DNA of 64,000 bases, from the NCBI GenBank assembly GCA_963630875.1, contig CAVGOI010000006.1, forward strand, positions 2,531 through 66,530, written 5' to 3'. The position numbers and the translations under genes are program-made. The notes beneath the pieces were generated by a model. It was not told the DNA's origin. It did not search any database and saw only the letters and a program-made list of their open reading frames with translations. Positions 18,017-42,640 of the stretch are shown one piece after another (position 1 is the first letter of the stretch; the number at the start of each line of letters is the position of its first letter). This DNA comes from Mycobacteriaceae bacterium (GTDB taxonomy: Bacteria; Bacteroidota; Bacteroidia; Bacteroidales; Paludibacteraceae).

Positions 18017-18132
18017 AATATAGGACCAATCAGCCACTCATCTCGCACGGATATCCATACCACATCCATAGCATATCCATAGCACATCCATAGCACTACC
18101 TTACCACCTATAACTCTTATAAGGGTTTTAGA
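18017..18132. repeat. Promoter-proximal intergenic repeat, copy A
   Basis: aatataggaccaatcagccact...atatccataccacatccatagca...ctaccttaccacctataactcttataagggttttaga aligns with 42373-42477. Confidence 0.7.
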
Positions 18133-20832: not shown

Positions 20833-20969
20833 AATTGAGAATCTTAAAAAACGACACTTTTATTTAGACAGGACTTGCTTACGAGTTGGTAACGAGTTCC
20901 TAACGAGTTGGTAACGAATTTTCAGAGACTGGTATAAGACTGCTATAAGAGAGATATAACGATTTCATC

Positions 20970-22058
20970 TTAAAAATTGACACTTTTCGTATATAGTTCA
21001 TAGAGCGTGTCTGCCACTACGGGCGTGGTATAACGGGCGGGCAATGCTGGCGACGACAAATGCCCTACCGCCATGGCTTGGCGCAAACAGTGCGCTACAT
21101 CGGCAGCCTCGTAAGTGCAGAGAAACGCATTCGGCACACCCGCCACGACCTCCCGCACATCGCCCACATCGGTCGATACCACAGGACAGCCACACGCCAC
21201 CGCCTCTTTGATAAACTGCGGGCTCCCCTCCGAGAACGAAGTCAGCAGCGCACAATCACACGCATTATATAGCAGCGGCATCTGCTCACGGGTATAGCCG
21301 AAGAGTTCTAGGAGAACAACACTACGACCACTCCAACCTCTCCTTACCCCTCCAGAGGAGGGGGATTCCGATGCGCTATTAGCCCCCTCTCTGAGGGGGA
21401 AGGGGGAGTCGGGAGCAGGGCTTGTGCTGTATACTATCTCCACCGCTTTCTTTGCCAATGGGTAGTTCTTCACACGGTCGGAGAACTCTTTCGAGAACAA
21501 GATATAGGTAGTATGCTCGTCCCACCCCAATCGCTTGCGGCACGCCGTTCTATCCATAGGGTGGAATGCCTCTGTATCCACCGAGCACGGCACGACTGCC
21601 GCATGACGCACCCGCCCCGCTTTCTGCAGCAGTTGCTCCGAGACAAAGATATTACAATCCGACAACCGCATCGCCAAACGAGATAACCACCTGACCGAAC
21701 CGCTATTCACATCGCTGCCGTGGAAAGTGGAGAATGTCTTAGTTGAGTGTTGAGAGTTGAGAGTTGAGAGAAGTGGAGAGTGGAGAGTTGAGCGTTTGGT
21801 ACAGAGTTTCGTGGTCAACGCTGCCACCAAACAGCACAGACCGCTATGCCCATGCACCATATCGGGGCGATACGAACGCACGGCTTTCGGTATGCCCCAC
21901 AACGCACGGACATACCCCCGCCAACCACCGGCAATCAGGTAGTACTCCACCTCCACCCCTTTGGCACGCAATGCCTGCACCTGCTCATAGATAAAAGGCG
22001 CAACATACTCCGTATACGGAGCATAATACCGACGACTGCAAACGATTAGTACTTTCAT
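20970..22058 (-). CDS. Family 4 (GT-B) glycosyltransferase, paralog 1, with in-frame repeat insertions
   Basis: 362 aa. MKVLIVCS start, VHGHSGLC, TFHGSDV, the EX7E-region SFSEGSPQFIKEAVACGCPVVSTDVGDV, and C-terminus TLYELYTKSVNF. Confidence 0.8.
   Translation of the reverse strand: MKVLIVCSRRYYAPYTEYVAPFIYEQVQALRAKGVEVEYYLIAGGWRGYVRALWGIPKAVRSYRPDMVHGHSGLCCLVAALTTKLCTKRSTLHSPLLSTLNSQHSTKTFSTFHGSDVNSGSVRWLSRLAMRLSDCNIFVSEQLLQKAGRVRHAAVVPCSVDTEAFHPMDRTACRKRLGWDEHTTYILFSKEFSDRVKNYPLAKKAVEIVYSTSPAPDSPFPLREGANSASESPSSGGVRRGWSGRSVVLLELFGYTREQMPLLYNACDCALLTSFSEGSPQFIKEAVACGCPVVSTDVGDVREVVAGVPNAFLCTYEAADVAHCLRQAMAVGHLSSPALPARYTTPVVADTLYELYTKSVNF
21329..21410. repeat. Palindromic element translated in-frame within GT4 paralog 1
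   Basis: Contains two 7-bp stem hairpins, cccctccagaggagggg and ccccctctctgaggggg. The outer arms actccaacctctccttacccctc / gagggggaagggggagt are imperfect complements. Encodes ...DSPFPLREGANSASESPSSGGVRRGW... Confidence 0.7.
21740..21795. repeat. Heptanucleotide array (TTGAGNG/TGGAGAG on + strand) within GT4 paralog 1
   Basis: tag ttgagtg ttgagag ttgagag ttgagag aag tggagag tggagag ttgagcg. Translated as KRSTLHSPLLSTLNSQHSTK just before the TFHGSD motif. Confidence 0.75.
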
Positions 22059-23431
22059 AACACAACTACCCTACTCGACCCAAGCGAGCAGGGAACCAAA
22101 TAGAACGGAAAACGAAACTTAATGCGCGAGGAGTGCCGAATAGATGGCTTGCAGCGTGCGTGCCACTTGCGGATTGGTAAGCCCCTGCGACAACAGACGC
22201 TCCCGTGCTTCGGTACGGAACTCCGAGGCAGCACTTTGCTGCTGCGAATATATGGGGGGGGGGTAAAATTAAGCACCATTCGTAGCAACATAGCGAGTTC
22301 GTGCGGGTCGCGACTGTTCGCCACGGCACAACCGGTAATACGCTCTATGCGTTCCCGCACATCGCCCACATCGACAGACACTATCGGGCACCCACACGCC
22401 ATCGCTTCTTTTATCACTTGCGGACTTCCCTCCTGCCGGCTTGTCAACAGCAAACAATCAGCCGCACACATCAACCGATTAACCGTAGAGCGAGAGAAAC
22501 CACGGAGTTCAATTAGACTCCCTCTCTCCCCCTCAAAGAGGGGGGATTCAGAGCATGCACATGCCCCCACTCTGAGGGGGAAAGAGGAGTCAGAGTTGCG
22601 TTTTGGAAGACATGCTATTACTTCCTCTGCTAATGCAGCGTCTTTGACCGAGTTATCAAAAGCGCCGGCAAAGAGAATAAGACGCCTATTCTGTATCTCG
22701 CTGAATGAATATACCTTACGCTCTTTACCGTCAGAAACAGTACACTGCAAGCTCATCTCTGCCAAGCGCCTGCGTGCCTCCGACCGAGAGAGCAGTTGCT
22801 CCTCCGAAAGCGTTACCCCGCACGGTAGCAGTGAGTAGTTATCGCCTCTATACGCCCAAAGAGCAAACCATTTCCCTTCGGCACGCGCCGTGCGTATGTT
22901 TGCCCTCGATACAAAGATATTCCATGCTGAGAGCCGCATTGCCCACCGCGACAGCCACAGTACACGAGGCGTGTTTATATCGCTCCCGTGGTAAGTGGTG
23001 ATAACTTTAGTTGAGCGTTGAGCGTTGAGCGTTGAGTGCAGTTTAGAGTTGAGAGAAGTTGAGCGTTGAGCGTTGAGCGTTGAGTGCAGTTGAGCGTTGA
23101 GAGTTGAGTGTTGAGTGCAGTTTAGAGAAGTTGAGCGTTGAGCGTTGAGTGTTGAGTGCAGTTTAGAGTGGATAGTGGATAGTTTAGCGTGTATCGTAGC
23201 CAGATTGGCAAGCAGACCGCAGAGCCCGTAGTGTGCATGGACGATATCCGGGCGCTCCGTGCATATAGTTTGCCGCAGGCGAGGTATCTCCCGCAGGTAA
23301 CCACGCACCCCTTTCCCCCGCACGGCATACCGCACGACCTCGTGCGAGAGGTCTTGCAACGCCTGCATTTGCTCCTCCACAAACGGAGCGAAATGCCCAC
23401 CTTTGTCCGCTGCCACTATCAGGATTTTCAT
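22055..23431 (-). CDS. Family 4 (GT-B) glycosyltransferase, paralog 2; C-terminus out of frame at a C10 tract as sequenced
   Basis: MKILIVAADKGG, VHAHYGLCGL, TYHGSDI and SRQEGSPQVIKEAMACGCPIVSVDVGDV. After the poly-C (22254-22263) the listed frame gives a basic, non-protein-like tail that runs into the next gene. The +1C frame ends at 22119 with a paralog-like C-terminus. Confidence 0.75.
   Translation of the reverse strand: MKILIVAADKGGHFAPFVEEQMQALQDLSHEVVRYAVRGKGVRGYLREIPRLRQTICTERPDIVHAHYGLCGLLANLATIHAKLSTIHSKLHSTLNAQRSTSLNCTQHSTLNAQLHSTLNAQRSTSLNSKLHSTLNAQRSTKVITTYHGSDINTPRVLWLSRWAMRLSAWNIFVSRANIRTARAEGKWFALWAYRGDNYSLLPCGVTLSEEQLLSRSEARRRLAEMSLQCTVSDGKERKVYSFSEIQNRRLILFAGAFDNSVKDAALAEEVIACLPKRNSDSSFPLRVGACACSESPLFEGERGSLIELRGFSRSTVNRLMCAADCLLLTSRQEGSPQVIKEAMACGCPIVSVDVGDVRERIERITGCAVANSRDPHELAMLLRMVLNFTPPPYIRSSKVLPRSSVPKHGSVCCRRGLPIRKWHARCKPSIRHSSRIKFRFPFYLVPCSLGSSRVVVL
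22254..22263. repeat. G10 (+ strand) / C10 (coding strand) homopolymer
   Basis: atat-gggggggggg-taaaatt, counted directly. Confidence 0.9.
22516..22591. repeat. Palindromic element translated in-frame within GT4 paralog 2
   Basis: gactccctctctccccctcaaagaggggggattcagagcatgcacatgcccccactctgagggggaaagaggagtc. The terminal arms are near-perfect reverse complements. It sits at the same position in the protein as the element in paralog 1 (...DSSFPLRVGACACSESPLFEGERGS...). Confidence 0.75.
23008..23185. repeat. Roughly 178-nt heptanucleotide array (TTGAGCG/TTGAGTG on + strand; CTCAACG on coding strand) within GT4 paralog 2
   Basis: Runs of 3-4 consecutive ttgagcg units are separated by cagtttagag blocks. 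Three units (21 nt) translate to the 7-aa period LNAQRST, seen three times in the protein. Confidence 0.85.
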
Positions 23432-23545
23432 TGTGCTGCTGTACTCCGCTAACGACGGTTATTTTCTCCATGCTGCCCATTAAAGGGCCATTAAAAGGCT
23501 GCGCATATAATTCCTAACTCCTAATTCCTAATTGTTATTGTTTTG

Positions 23546-25366
23546 TCAGAATGAGAACGAAAAAGCGACAGAGGCGGTGAAGTTGCGCCCCTGATAGAAG
23601 AGCGGGCAGTAAGCATTGAGGTAATCGGTAGCCGTTCCGTAGTACTCACTGCCGATAGCCGTGCCATTAGCCGTCGCCTCCTCCAAAGTATTATCAAAAC
23701 CCCGCGCATGGTTGTACGACAACGAGAGCGTGAGATACATATTGGGGTGCACCTCGTATATCCCGTTCAGACACACCTCGTCGTTACGGAAGATGGCACG
23801 GTCGAAAGGCTTGCGGGCTATGGTTTGCGAAATGCCGCCGTCGGCCCCACCTCCGCGCAAATAAGCATACGCGTTGTATTTGGTATCACCCGTGTAGGAC
23901 AAGCGCAACAGCATACCCCGTATCGGGCGATAGGCAAGTTCCGCATAAATAGACTGCGCATTATCGCCTAAATAATGCCCCATCGTATAGCCGTTACTCT
24001 TCCAAGTAAGCACCTCAACAGAATGGGTGTAACAAGCAATATACGAGCGCATAAACTCACCCCGCAGGCTCAAACCCGTGAGCGGCCAACCCGACCAGTT
24101 GAAACCCACAAGATAGGACACGGGATTATTCTCCGCATTGCTGCTTTTGAGCCGCGAGAGTTTGAACTCGTCCAGATAGAAAGAACCATAGAGTTGGATA
24201 TACCGCCATGGACGGACGGAGAGGGAGGCAAAAGCCTGTGAGTTCTGATTCTCGGTGCGCAGCCCTTTGGTCAGCAAGTGGTCAAGCGACTTATAGAACG
24301 CCACGGGGATAAAATACGCTGCCTGCGGTGTGCGCTCGGCATAGACGATGGAATTGCCAAACGAGAAAGAAAGATAGCGTATGGGCGTGAAAGTGAACAT
24401 ATTGGCTGCCATATACTTGCCAGCAGGGCGGTAATGGCGTTGCGTGGCTCCGGTGGTGGTGTTCTCGACATAGTAATTGGTGGAGTCCGTCACATTGGAC
24501 ACCAACCACGCATGGAAATAGTCAAACTGAAACCAACGGCAGGGTGTGAGTTGCAAAGACACCATCGGCACCGCCGGATTATGCCCCGACAGGATATTCG
24601 ATGCATGGTACGCATCGCCCCACCGGATACTCTCGCGCTGCACGGAAAGGCTGCCCCACCACGCATACAGACTGATACCGCCCTTGGAGTCGGAGAAGTC
24701 GCCACCGTAGTCGGCTTCCTTGTACTGCACACCGGCTATATTGCGCAAGGCAGGTTGTTTCTGCGAAGCCCCGTAGTGGATACGCGCACCGTTCATACGG
24801 TCTTTTTCGGTGGGGAAATAGGTCTTGTTCAGCCAGTTGCCGCTCCACGAGTTGTCGCGCAGCGAACCCCAGATACTGAGGTGGCGGGCAATATCCATCT
24901 GCAGTTCCGCCCCCCACCAGCGTTGGAGGATAGCCCCCTTTTTGCTTGCCGTAATATCGGCACCGAGGATAGGGCGGATACGCATCTTGAACAGGTTGTT
25001 GGGGGTGCGATACGAGAACTGCGGGTCCGCCAGCGAGAGGGAAAAGGTGCTGTGGTCGGTATATTGCACATAATTGCTTACCATCGTATCCCGCTCCAGC
25101 GCTAATTCGTTGCGGTAGAAAGCAAGGTCTTTGCGTTGCCTTGTGTTGAGCAGCGAGTCTGCCTGCTGCGCCTCGTCCAACATCTGCGCCACTTGCAGGC
25201 GCGTGTAGGGGCGTACTGCCGTCTGCGCTGTAATCACGCCGTCGGTAAGGAGTTCGTCCAAATAGTCGTACAGCCGTGTGTAGGTCAACGGGACGGGTAT
25301 GTTCTGTGCCTGCAGGGCAGCACTTGCCAACAGGAAGACAAGGATGTATCGTGTTGTGCGTTTCAT
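23546..25366 (-). CDS. Capsule-assembly Wzi-like outer membrane protein (uncertain)
   Basis: About 606 aa from the ATG at 25366 (MKRTTRYILVFLLASAALQAQ signal). N-terminal helical region LYDYLDELLTDGVI...VRPYTRLQVAQML resembles the Wzi N-terminus, followed by a beta-barrel-like alternating pattern ending in ...FSF. The listed start at 25381 is TTG. Confidence 0.5.
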   Translation of the reverse strand: MKRTTRYILVFLLASAALQAQNIPVPLTYTRLYDYLDELLTDGVITAQTAVRPYTRLQVAQMLDEAQQADSLLNTRQRKDLAFYRNELALERDTMVSNYVQYTDHSTFSLSLADPQFSYRTPNNLFKMRIRPILGADITASKKGAILQRWWGAELQMDIARHLSIWGSLRDNSWSGNWLNKTYFPTEKDRMNGARIHYGASQKQPALRNIAGVQYKEADYGGDFSDSKGGISLYAWWGSLSVQRESIRWGDAYHASNILSGHNPAVPMVSLQLTPCRWFQFDYFHAWLVSNVTDSTNYYVENTTTGATQRHYRPAGKYMAANMFTFTPIRYLSFSFGNSIVYAERTPQAAYFIPVAFYKSLDHLLTKGLRTENQNSQAFASLSVRPWRYIQLYGSFYLDEFKLSRLKSSNAENNPVSYLVGFNWSGWPLTGLSLRGEFMRSYIACYTHSVEVLTWKSNGYTMGHYLGDNAQSIYAELAYRPIRGMLLRLSYTGDTKYNAYAYLRGGGADGGISQTIARKPFDRAIFRNDEVCLNGIYEVHPNMYLTLSLSYNHARGFDNTLEEATANGTAIGSEYYGTATDYLNAYCPLFYQGRNFTASVAFSFSF

Positions 25367-25377
25367 ATTCAATTCGG

Positions 25378-26904
25378 TCAATGGCTATGGGCGTGTTTGA
25401 ATAATATGGTATAGACGATACGCCAGAAATACACAAAGTCCGTGAGCAGTGTACCCCGCTCCTCGCACATCGTGAGATAGCGCATCTCGGACGCTTGTAT
25501 CTCGTCCAAAGTCTTGGGCATATCGGCATAGAAAGGCGGCAGCAATCCGGGCTTATGCTTCACACGCTTGGCTTGCAACTCAGGCGAATAGAGCGAGAAA
25601 TACTGCTGTGAGATAGGGCGCACGCCTACCAGTTTCATATCCCCCTTGAGGAGATTGATGAGCATCGGCCACTCGTCTATCCAGTATTTGCGCATAAAGC
25701 GTCCTAAAGTGGTTACGCGTATATCGTGGCTGAACTTGCCTCCCTCCTGCAAGGCATACCGTTCATAGATATACGACTGCAGGAATTCGGAATACGGGTG
25801 CATGGTTCGGAACTTATAGACGCGGAACATCTTCCCGTTCATCCCCACCCGATTGAGCCGCACCAAGATACCGTACAAGCGTCTTTCGGTGATTTGCGGG
25901 CGGAATTTGCGCCGTGCAATGACATAGTCGAGGTTGCCTATCTTGCGTTCTGTAACAATCTCGAAGCCGCAGTAGCACAGCCGTCCCAGCACCTCCGCCT
26001 TGCTCAGGACGCGGTCTTTGCCTTCCGTGATATCGAAATACAGGCGCGAGGTCATAAACAACTTGGGCAGCACGCGCTTGTACAGGAAGAACAGCGTGTA
26101 ATACAGCCAGTTCAGCACCGGAGGATAGCGTTTGAGTATATCGCGTTTGGTAACCGATTGCGGCTCGTAGCAGCACACCCAAATACCCTCGTCGGGCAAC
26201 TTGTCGTTGACCAAGGTGAACATCTTGTTCACCCCCCGTATTTGGTTGAGCGGTGCAAAGTTCACCAAGGTGTCGAAGCGGTAGTCGGGCAGTTTGGCAA
26301 TGTTGTACAAGTCGGTGGAACGCAGGGTGAAGGTATTCGACGAGTAGAGTTCGATATGTCGTTCCAAGAAAGCAATCAGGCTTTCGGGTGCGAACGAGAG
26401 AATACTCCGGTGCAGGTTCTCGCGGGCTTCGGGCAAGAAGGGTTGCGGCGGATACAGCACCGCCTGTGTGCCGCGCTCGGGTGCCGCAATAGGTTCCTCG
26501 TCGGCATCGGAAGCATACCGGTAGGCATGCTTGGCAATAAGCATCGCCACCGACACCGCCAACATGACGAGCCATATCGTCAGCAGCACCCATATTGAGA
26601 AATTGCTACGGGCGTGCCACCACATATAGGCGTACATGGCAGCGAAAGTAAACAGAGCCGCCATGAGCAATCGCCACAGGTCCTTTCCCATCTTCATGTA
26701 CTTCACCGGTATGTAGCGGTGGCAGCCGTAACTGAACACGAGCCACACACCCGCGAAGACCAAGGCGAAGATATAGTATTTCTGGAACGGGACTTGGGTT
26801 GAGAGCGGGAATAACGCCAGCACAATCAGCACGCTTACCACCAATGCGATGGCATCGGCGATAATGTACTTTCCATAAGGATGATAAACTATGCGTCTTT
26901 TCAT
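25378..26904 (-). CDS. Polyprenyl-phosphate sugar-phosphate transferase (Bac_transf family, priming enzyme)
   Basis: 508 aa with about four N-terminal TM helices. The C-terminal motifs are YKFRTM and IDEWPMLINLLKGDMKLVGVRP. Confidence 0.8.
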   Translation of the reverse strand: MKRRIVYHPYGKYIIADAIALVVSVLIVLALFPLSTQVPFQKYYIFALVFAGVWLVFSYGCHRYIPVKYMKMGKDLWRLLMAALFTFAAMYAYMWWHARSNFSIWVLLTIWLVMLAVSVAMLIAKHAYRYASDADEEPIAAPERGTQAVLYPPQPFLPEARENLHRSILSFAPESLIAFLERHIELYSSNTFTLRSTDLYNIAKLPDYRFDTLVNFAPLNQIRGVNKMFTLVNDKLPDEGIWVCCYEPQSVTKRDILKRYPPVLNWLYYTLFFLYKRVLPKLFMTSRLYFDITEGKDRVLSKAEVLGRLCYCGFEIVTERKIGNLDYVIARRKFRPQITERRLYGILVRLNRVGMNGKMFRVYKFRTMHPYSEFLQSYIYERYALQEGGKFSHDIRVTTLGRFMRKYWIDEWPMLINLLKGDMKLVGVRPISQQYFSLYSPELQAKRVKHKPGLLPPFYADMPKTLDEIQASEMRYLTMCEERGTLLTDFVYFWRIVYTILFKHAHSH

Positions 26905-29373: not shown

Positions 29374-29446
29374 GTTGCAGGCAATATGTACGCAATTTTT
29401 CCAAAAAAAATCAATGGTCAATTACATGGTAATTACAGTTGATGGG

Positions 29447-29639
29447 TTTATGGGTTTAGTTTATCCGTTTATGGGTTTATGCGTGGTTTAGTTGGTTTAT
29501 GGGTTTATCCGTTTATGGGTTGATGAGTTTATGCGTGGTTTAGTTGGTTTTGGGTTAAGGGGTTAAGCAGCAACTCTTTCACTTCTCAACCCACTAAACC
29601 CATTCAACCACGCATAAACGGATAAACTAAACCCATAAA
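29447..29639. repeat. 26-bp perfect inverted repeat separated by 141 nt, embedded in tandemly duplicated 'gtttatggg' word repeats
   Basis: tttatgggtttagtttatccgtttat (29447-29472) is the exact reverse complement of ataaacggataaactaaacccataaa (29614-29639). The left arm region is itself duplicated (29445-29498 and 29495-29550). Confidence 0.85.
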
Positions 29640-29651
29640 CTCATAAACAAC

Positions 29652-29693
29652 ACTCAACTTCCCCCCCTCTTTGAGGTGGGGGAAGGGGGAGTC
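29652..29693. repeat. Solo hairpin copy of the GT-borne palindromic element
   Basis: actcaacttccccccctc-ttt-gaggtgggggaagggggagtc. It shares the exact 16-mer gggggaagggggagtc with 21395-21410 and is followed by a T6 run. Confidence 0.7.
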
Positions 29694-42349: not shown

Positions 42350-42477
42350 TCAACCCCCAAACGGGACATAACAATATAGGACAAATCAGCCACTAATCAG
42401 CCACTTATATCCATACCACATCCTTAGCACTACCCTAGCACTACCTTAGCACCTATGACTCTTATATGGGTTTTAGA
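42350..42477. repeat. Promoter-proximal intergenic repeat, copy B (with cccccaaacgggacat head)
   Basis: Positions 42373-42477 align with 18017-18132. The head 42350-42369 (tcaacccccaaacgggacat) matches 48745-48764. Confidence 0.7.
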
Positions 42478-42516
42478 CCTCTTTTGAATGCCCTCTTGAC
42501 CTTTCCTTCCCATCCG

Positions 42517-42576
42517 TCAAAGATGCCTTTTACTATCCCTGTCCTTTCTTCAAAGATGCCTTTTACTATCCCTGTC
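42517..42576. repeat. 33-nt period tandem repeat (2 copies plus a degenerate third)
   Basis: tcaaagatgccttttactatccctgtc occurs at 42517-42543 and again exactly at 42550-42576. A degenerate copy, ccgaagatacccctgtcc, follows. Confidence 0.85.
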
Positions 42577-42640
42577 TTTTTTCCGAAGATACCCCTGTCC
42601 TACGATGCTTATTCTTCCATTGAGGGGTGTAGTATATAGC

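Follow-up and report, generated by a model that had tools for sequence, protein, structure and literature searches.

Within a 64,000-nt stretch of contig CAVGOI010000006.1 (positions 2,531 to 66,530; assembly GCA_963630875.1, filed as a Mycobacteriaceae bacterium and placed by GTDB in the Bacteroidales family Paludibacteraceae), hereafter the window, two adjacent paralogous genes for GT4-family glycosyltransferases, GT1 and GT2, each carry an in-frame palindromic insert, which we call element 1 and element 2. We conclude that these inserts are probably copies of an interspersed, non-coding triplex-motif DNA repeat of uncultured gut and rumen Bacteroidales that is read through as protein loops. 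The original prediction had described the two elements as 76-82 nt long, with hairpins and complementary termini, and as translated in frame at equivalent positions of the two paralogs. Their sequence and translation are as it described, and the inserts of GT1 and GT2 pair up with each other in a BLASTP alignment of the two proteins; the GT1 peptide at this point includes ...APDSPFPLR/EGANSASESPSSGGVR. Calling them palindromic elements was also correct but undersold their anatomy, as each arm consists of a hairpin followed by a mirror-repeat purine tail.

The repeat unit is approximately 31 nt long and is made of a 7-nt pyrimidine arm, a 3-nt loop (mostly TTT or TCT), a complementary 7-nt purine arm, about 2 nt, a 7-nt purine tail and a final TC. 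As single-stranded DNA it can be written d(CCCCCTCTTTGAGGGGGTTGGGGGAGTC). The purine tail mirrors the purine arm, as in GAGGGGG and then GGGGGAG, and this relationship holds across units with different stems. In type A, the stem CCCCCTC goes with the tail GGGGAGTC in 98 of 98 units, and in type B the stem CCCCTCC goes with the tail GGGAGGTC in 27 of 27. When units were anchored on their hairpins, the type's own mirror tail was perfect (7/7) in 111 type A and 21 type B cases, and the other type's tail was perfect in only three cases of each type. Five more stem variants follow the mirror rule, one of them in Bacteroidales and four in Burkholderiales-type loci, giving seven different stems over two phyla, all with a mirror-consistent tail. 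Examples from Burkholderiales are the arm GAGAGGG, whose tail is GGGAGAG or GGGTGAG, and the arm GAGGAGG, whose tail is GGTGGTG; an A or a T stands exactly at the mirrored A positions in each case. A mirror repeat goes beyond what Watson-Crick pairing can explain; it is what a third strand of the antiparallel purine motif requires, with its triads G*G.C, A*A.T and T*A.T. The unit has the layout of a purine-motif intrastrand triplex motif, a fold that we infer from the three-way covariation of its blocks.

Units occur singly or as inverted pairs, and across loci the pairs usually combine one type A and one type B unit. Both glycosyltransferase inserts are inverted pairs of units. In an information profile of 112 units, the hairpin is preceded on its 5' side by only a weak TCTG and followed on its 3' side by GGGGGAGTC; conservation is limited to the ~31 nt plus this weak upstream TCTG, and the flanks are unrelated.

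Several further observations were made on the units. The look-alike family in Burkholderiales (..GAGCCCCCTCTCGGAGGGGGCGCGGGGGAGTCGTGCG..), which keeps the mirror-tail rule with its four other stems, was found in Piscinibacter (L017, L030, L032, L044, L086, L090 and L097, from a MAG, that is, a metagenome-assembled genome), Comamonas (L012 and L069) and Ideonella (L015), where L numbers label the fetched loci used for comparison; these units often adjoin a second unit with a different stem. Tandem duplications in which the unit tail, or a half-unit with its tail, is repeated along with the next few bases are frequent, as in GGGGGAGTCTGAATGGGGGGAGTCTGAAGGGGGGAGTC, at L024 (1235-1300), L107, L092, L073, L077, L014 and L076. 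Such duplications may be the footprint of slippage or of insertion chemistry. In addition, the same longer context, GCAACGCCCGACAC..(unit)..TTGGTTTCTTTTCTTTTGGTCAGGCAAAAGAAAAGAAAG, recurs in several genomes (L013, L029, L031, L051, L071 and L094) and suggests a larger composite repeat or the end of an RNA gene.

In the window, CCCCCTCNNNGAGGGGG at up to one mismatch was matched four times against 0.00 expected, GAGGGGGAAGGGGGAGTC at up to three mismatches three times against 0.06 expected, and the full three-block pattern once (21383-21408) against 0.00 expected. Because the hairpin, tail and three-block matches all exceed expectation, a chance origin of the window motifs is ruled out. Perfect tails are confined to the type A unit of element 1 and a single intergenic unit, and the other three window units, mirror-consistent at 5/7 to 6/7 positions, are partly decayed. 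The intergenic unit had been noted before as a hairpin-only third copy. It is indeed intergenic, in a divergent intergenic region where it adjoins 8-nt-period arrays, but it is a complete unit with its AA linker, GGGGGAG tail and TC. No tRNA genes were found in the window.

The family extends well beyond the window. Scanning the pattern CCCCCTCNNNGAGGGGGN{4,7}GGAGTC over one genome per species (185,579 species) recovered it at at least 115 loci with unrelated flanks, mostly from uncultured Bacteroidales; the elements therefore belong to a repeat family, as had been proposed, and are not just a protein motif. Uncultured gut, rumen or Hadza Bacteroidales MAGs account for 94 of the loci listed, and among the matches listed several genomes have 5 to 17 or more loci each. 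A profile search (nhmmer) found 175 units in the fetched DNA; its iteration from type A seeds recruited no type B units, and these were added by pattern. Unit density is approximately 70 per Mb in the fetched loci when seed hits are left out, and 62 per Mb in the window. A scan of viral contigs gave only three matches, on which ground a phage-borne element was rejected. As the original prediction had supposed for Bacteroidota, the searchable literature yielded no account of elements of this kind in Bacteroidales.

Some of the matching records carry unexpected names. In one MAG project, record titles read 'Azospirillum sp. CAG:239', 'Dialister sp. CAG:486', 'uncultured Clostridium sp.' and 'Bacteroides uniformis', and the contigs concerned (L024, L047, L091, L107 (CAVEXR01), L037, L079, L011 and others) hold Bacteroidales-type genes (SusD, TonB receptors) together with the repeat. 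The taxonomy labels are for this reason probably wrong.

A large share of the copies lies inside coding genes. Among the Bacteroidales loci, 53 of 141 unit clusters (38%) stand in a frame that remains open for at least 60 codons on both sides, compared with 61% of random positions; 81 clusters are classed as non-ORF. Pfam domains were detected in 18 of 20 scanned host open reading frames (ORFs); in most of these the unit falls within a matched domain or between two of them. Among the hosts are peptidase U32, QueA, GH3, O-methyltransferase, NAD-dependent DNA ligase (LigA), GSCFA and GH20, and further DNA polymerase I (PolA, in two genomes), RsgA, TonB-dependent receptors, an ABC-F protein, DnaX and DapB. 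In DapB (L034), the net length change relative to a solved homologue is zero, so not every intragenic copy is a clean insertion; in the O-methyltransferase, the unit codes only the end of a 78-aa insertion.

When copies were tabulated by location and frame, four stop-free frames emerged: the forward frames xPSLRGxGES (16 cases) and SPLSEGVGGV (14) and the reverse frames TPPTPSKRG (13) and DSPxPLxEG (10). The forward frame that exposes the TGA of the loop was seen in only two cases, both with variant loops. The use of four frames together with avoidance of the TGA frame is the pattern expected of DNA insertions filtered by selection. Moreover, since one DNA unit read in four frames yields four unrelated peptides, it is the DNA that is conserved and not a protein motif.

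We placed the GT1 insert on the protein fold with an AlphaFold2 model built from a 120-sequence alignment (mean predicted local distance difference test score, pLDDT, 86.7; predicted template modelling score, pTM, 0.84). The model has a GT-B fold matching the solved GT4 enzymes MshA, BshA, PglA and PimA. Its only segment with predicted pLDDT below 50 is aa 214-243, corresponding to window positions 21330-21419 and coinciding with element 1. The insert had been expected between two strands; the position between the flanking structures is borne out by the model, but the first of these is a predicted helix (aa 199-211) and only the second a strand (aa 247-251), both in the C-terminal Rossmann domain. 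In the model, a second low-confidence loop (site 1, aa ~93-106) lies in the same kind of place, between helix 73-92 and strand 107-112. As modelled, the GT1 insert thus occupies a predicted disordered loop at the surface, leading from helix to strand.

Comparison with relatives shows that the inserts are additions to a functional gene. Both GT proteins have Pfam Glyco_transf_4 / Glycos_transf_1 (GT4/GT1) domains, and the GT1 core is under strong purifying selection (ratio of nonsynonymous to synonymous substitution rates, dN/dS, 0.08-0.12 against orthologs); the host gene is therefore functional. Among 3073 GT1 homologues (E <= 1e-5), the typical ortholog has ~309 aa, against 362 aa for GT1; distant orthologs of this length, at 45-60% identity, are entirely without the peptide. 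Orthologs of at most 57% identity lack both extra GT1 segments, site 1 in the N-domain and site 2, which holds element 1, in the C-domain. In closer GT1 orthologs, site 2 is occupied by a dimer in the window and L006, by a single unit in L005 and by a remnant in L004, which has a unit at site 1 instead. Where flanks are ~99% identical, GT1 site 1 is empty in L123, filled by a 45-nt heptamer array in the window, and filled by a different array together with a unit in L122. Between the window and L001, the arrays of GT2 site 1 differ by 48 nt, and two units replace part of the array in L123. Unit presence, then, differs between strains whose flanks are ~99% identical.

Two other accounts were set aside. 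The order of the A and B hairpins is swapped between the window and L006, and inversion of the whole element as the cause was rejected by eye, the spacer being colinear. Gene conversion of a larger segment between GT1 and GT2, which would account for the shared site in the two paralogs, is unsupported, as the flanks are alike only at the protein level (38%).

The heptamer arrays are in-frame 7-nt tandem arrays located at the equivalent N-domain loop of both paralogs, at 21741-21796 in GT1 and 23009-23169 in GT2. Their unit is GTTGAG[A/C] on the plus strand, read as ..STLNSQ/LNAQRST.., and they seem to grow from the local sequence ACTCAAC. They are missing from distant orthologs, and their length and content vary between near-identical strains. 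More generally, intergenic regions abound in short tandem arrays, each with its own sequence, whose periods are 7, 8 and especially 11 nt (254 arrays in 0.8 Mb of related loci); sites in the window include 18051-18107, 20881-20950, 29414-29650 and 42384-42590, and the array at 29438-29650 is followed by its own inverted copy. Near units, tandem arrays were found at 32% of positions compared with 18% of random non-coding positions, a modest excess, and we treat the arrays as a feature separate from the units. The spacer between GT1 and the neighboring FemAB gene (20833-20969) holds an insert of ~127 nt made of 11-nt-period arrays and flanked by a directly duplicated target stretch of ~21 nt, AAAAGTGTC[G/A]TTTTTTAAGAT. 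This insert is common to L004 and the window, and the junction is compact and uninterrupted in L123 and L005.

GT2 and its surroundings show variation of their own. A homopolymer near the 3' end of GT2 (22254-22263) reads on the sense strand as C10 in the window; L001 and L002 have C13 there, and L004 has C8. The conserved GT2 C-terminus (..SEFRTEARERLLSQGLTNPQVARTLQAIYSALLAH*) results only from C8 or C11; C10 and C13 shift the frame, which then reads on to overlap the start of GT1. Such a tract might reflect phase variation or slippage, or might result from faulty assembly. Upstream of GT2, the gene at 23432-25381 varies among close relatives: it is Wzi-like in the window and MlaD-like in both L001 and L123, and L004 has a hexapeptide or epimerase gene there. 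Because this gene differs while GT1 is identical or near-identical in the window, L001, L123 and L004, a rearrangement boundary adjoins the GT pair.

Table 1. Repeat elements, their units and their host genes in the window
Feature	Position	Strand	Details
Element 1, inverted pair (type B reversed, type A forward)	21329..21410		Translated as DSPFPLREGANSASESPSSGGVRRGWS; two perfect 7-bp hairpins; termini a 20-nt arm pair, 75% complementary
Type B unit of element 1	21329..21363	minus	Hairpin CCCCTCC/GGAGGGG 21347-53/21357-63; tail partly decayed, mirror-consistent at 6/7 positions
Type A unit of element 1	21383..21410	plus	CCCCCTC 21383-89, loop TCT, GAGGGGG 21393-99, linker AA, mirror tail GGGGGAG 21402-08, TC; exact three-block pattern match; nhmmer E = 1e-7
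Element 2, inverted pair of two type A units	22516..22591		Translated as DSSFPLRVGACACSESPLFEGERGS; outer termini GACTCC/GGAGTC 100% complementary
Left unit of element 2	22516..22544	minus	Hairpin CCCCCTC/GAGGGGG 22528-34/22538-44, tail AGAGAGGGAGTC; nhmmer E = 1e-5
Right unit of element 2	22564..22591	plus	Hairpin CCCCCAC/GAGGGGG 22564-70/22574-80 (one mismatch), loop TCT, decayed tail AAAGAGGAGTC
Intergenic single unit	29661..29693	plus	Arm CCCCCCCTC, loop TTT, arm GAGGTGGGGG, linker AA, tail GGGGGAG, TC
GT1, GT4-family glycosyltransferase gene	20970..22058	minus	362 aa; ORF and Pfam; host of element 1
GT2, GT4 gene paralogous to GT1	22055..23431	minus	458 aa as read; ORF and Pfam; host of element 2

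Judged by analogy, the closest known systems are BoxC/PIT/TM_ECO by architecture and, by behavior, the Rickettsia palindromic elements (RPEs) and intragenic repetitive extragenic palindromic (REP) sequences. Hoyne and Maher reportedly described the BoxC/PIT sequences of Escherichia coli as intrastrand triplex motif repeats in 2000. TM_ECO, earlier called BoxC or PIT, is a class II motif consisting of a C stem, a loop of 3-6 nt, a G stem, a loop of 3 nt and a second G stem (PMC4666352; Holder et al. 2015). Like the Bacteroidales units, it has three blocks on one strand, is G/C-rich and highly conserved, is present in tens to hundreds of copies and occurs both singly and as inverted 'palindromic' pairs. 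Neither repeat has a link to known transposons or phages, and both show local hypervariability between close strains. In contrast, the stems are 9 nt long in TM_ECO and 7 nt in the Bacteroidales units, the host phyla differ, and TM_ECO is reported to be always intergenic in E. coli MG1655 (PMC4666352), whereas ~38% of the Bacteroidales clusters lie inside ORFs. The TM_ECO consensus CCCTCNCCC-N3-6-GGGNGAGGG-N3-GGGNGAGGG has no match in the window or in any Bacteroidales locus, and its single match is in the Piscinibacter locus L090. With the layout in common and the TM_ECO sequence missing, the two share an architecture and are different families.

For behavior, the likeness to RPEs suggested in the original prediction is valid, given the counts of clusters in long ORFs and of host ORFs with Pfam domains reported above. 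RPEs, by the account in PMC10969869 (Ogata et al. 2000), are ~150 bp long with one conserved peptide per family. As in the Bacteroidales units, a palindromic repeat stands in frame in unrelated functional genes, including housekeeping genes, with the peptide placed where the fold tolerates it. The two differ in size (~100-150 bp for RPEs; ~31 nt for the units, with dimers of 75-82 nt) and in reading, with one peptide in RPEs compared with four frames in both orientations here. The Bacteroidales units are G/C-rich, and they share neither sequence relation nor host lineage with RPEs. Within the Bacteroidota, the BrickBuilt element of Porphyromonas gingivalis, a MITE (miniature inverted-repeat transposable element) and the only one mentioned for this phylum, is reported to be minisatellite-associated and strictly intergenic, with terminal inverted repeats (Klein et al. 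2015, via PMC10969869). It resembles the units in being a small Bacteroidota repeat, and short-period arrays often adjoin units here as well; it differs in its terminal inverted repeats, since neither these nor target-site duplications are present here, and many copies of the units are intragenic. MITEs are recognized by the terminal inverted repeats of a parent insertion sequence (IS) and by target-site duplication; the units have neither, with no duplication at filled versus empty sites or in the flank profile, and no IS-like partner was seen.

REP sequences raise a rival explanation. The unit could be an ordinary REP/REPIN-type element in which only the hairpin matters, the tail serves as a recognition or cleavage tag for a REP-associated tyrosine transposase (RAYT), and the mirror symmetry is incidental. 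The likenesses are real: as REP sequences, bacterial interspersed mosaic elements (BIMEs) and REPINs are defined, the units are high-copy imperfect palindromes of 20-40 nt that occur singly and as inverted doublets, and their pairing of two subtypes, A with B, recalls the Y and Z REPs of E. coli BIMEs. Intragenic REPs are documented in other phyla: a minority of GTAG/CGTC-tagged REPs, short stem-loops that form singles and head-to-head dimers, lie in ORFs, where they encode 10-30 aa, notably in replication and repair genes (Di Nocera et al. 2013, PMC3733652), and the hosts here include LigA, PolA and DnaX. Bacteroidetes also have a RAYT subclass of their own (2.6), flanked by atypical structures (PMC6006769). 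However, the unit ends lack the GTAG or CGTC tag, the mirror third block is foreign to REPs, and the intragenic fraction is much higher here. RAYT-like ORFs were not found in 0.94 Mb of loci, and the seven stems in two phyla keep the mirror tail, including A-to-T changes at mirrored positions, which a simple tag would not predict. We therefore consider the REP explanation unlikely.

Another explanation is that selection keeps the DNA in coding regions for a cis-acting function, beyond mere tolerance; it might be an mRNA hairpin that affects stability or translational pausing, or a site where proteins bind or recombination takes place. All four hairpins are perfect in GT1 orthologs separated by a synonymous divergence (dS) of ~0.96, and coding hairpins are about as intact as non-coding ones (57% and 71% perfect, respectively). 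The dimers would also form very stable RNA hairpins: element 2 as RNA is predicted to fold into an 82-nt hairpin of -52.4 kcal/mol (z = -5.85), and the element 1 pair could form one long hairpin of -42.5 kcal/mol, as computed with ViennaRNA, whose model covers Watson-Crick and wobble pairs only, with the triplex outside it. Among single units in ORFs, the forward orientation is favored by 27 to 14. Against this, the copies have no gene class, position or orientation in common, searching the whole window against Rfam at gathering thresholds gave no matching family, and presence varies between near-identical strains. Decayed copies exist (the right unit of element 2 and the L004 remnant), and in E. 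coli, PIT elements showed neither promoter nor terminator activity (PMC4666352). Hairpins can also be preserved by recent re-insertion or by conversion between copies. Perfect hairpins at this dS, together with the similar integrity of coding copies, point to a constraint on DNA structure or to ongoing replacement by family members, and we judge a selected cis-element to be quite improbable.

That the insert is a conserved glycosyltransferase protein segment whose DNA is palindromic by coincidence would fit the similar peptide at the equivalent position of both paralogs, but this is already refuted by the orthologs of at most 57% identity that lack the peptide, by the occurrence of this DNA between genes as well as within dozens of unrelated proteins, where it is read in four frames and in either orientation, by the predicted disorder of the insert, and by the DNA of the two elements being far more alike than the host proteins, which are 38% identical overall (BLASTP). 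An artefact of MAG assembly or binning is just as hard to entertain: although every source is a MAG or a short-read assembly, with several titles clearly mislabelled, an identical GT1 with its element is present in three independent assemblies (an NCBI MAG and two Logan runs; one genome with the identical GT1 is GCA_963619585.1), GT1 relatives occur in both ENA and NCBI assemblies, and the inserts keep the frame between conserved domains on both sides.

Under the explanation that we favor, a triplex-motif repeat read through as protein loops, a single DNA strand of the unit would form a hairpin, and its tail would lie over the purine strand of that hairpin to make an intrastrand triplex. Copies would enter coding DNA as readily as intergenic DNA, and selection would then purge those that disrupt the frame, expose the loop TGA or strike structured regions of the protein. 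The surviving copies would be translated as disordered loops rich in Pro, Ser, Gly and Glu. On DNA made single-stranded in replication or transcription, the non-B fold may promote slippage and repair errors, as has been proposed for TM_ECO (PMC4666352), and this would explain the hypervariable GT loops. The least certain step is the spread of the units, which might proceed by copy-and-paste of the folded single strand by a REP/RAYT-type HUH tyrosine nuclease or by template switching. A more far-reaching version holds that the units are an active insertion system that repeatedly writes short disordered loops into essential and surface-glycan proteins, driven either by an enzyme that recognizes the folded hairpin with its third strand or by the non-B DNA itself, via template switching in replication, with the GT4 loops diversified or switched between strains as a contingency mechanism together with the heptamer arrays and poly-C; we give this version only a small chance of being correct.

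Several points weigh against the triplex-repeat explanation. Loci were chosen by a perfect-hairpin pattern, which biases copy counts and hairpin integrity, and ~30% of the inside-ORF assignments are without independent verification. The triplex fold is read from covariation, the authors of the TM_ECO study were themselves unable to show a stable triplex in vivo (PMC4666352), and stems of 7 nt are of the length at which chance motifs were common in their scans (PMC4666352). Two master copies, from which the types would descend, might account for part of the A/B coupling. That the inserts are translated is likewise deduced from intact frames and purifying selection. Finally, strict and relaxed six-frame scans for an ORF with HUH and Y-x-x-N-P/Q motifs found none in 0.94 Mb of element-bearing loci, and no target-site duplication was seen at filled versus empty GT1 and GT2 sites or in the flank profile.

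Together, these results join two separate literatures, that on G/C-rich intrastrand-triplex repeats (BoxC/PIT/TM) and that on selfish DNA inside protein genes (RPEs and intragenic REPs). The main points of interest are the high intragenic fraction in essential genes, the cross-phylum covariation of stem and tail, and the GT hotspot. The covariation would be the first comparative evidence of a third-strand constraint, and the two GT4 genes are marked as a strain-variable hotspot. The clade, whose uncultured members are abundant in gut and rumen, appears to carry ~150-250 units per genome, of which a third or more would be read through in genes such as those for DNA ligase, Pol I, DnaX and DapB. 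The repeat would thus provide a large natural data set of tolerated loop insertions and would account for odd low-complexity Pro/Gly/Ser stretches and gene-length differences in MAG annotations.

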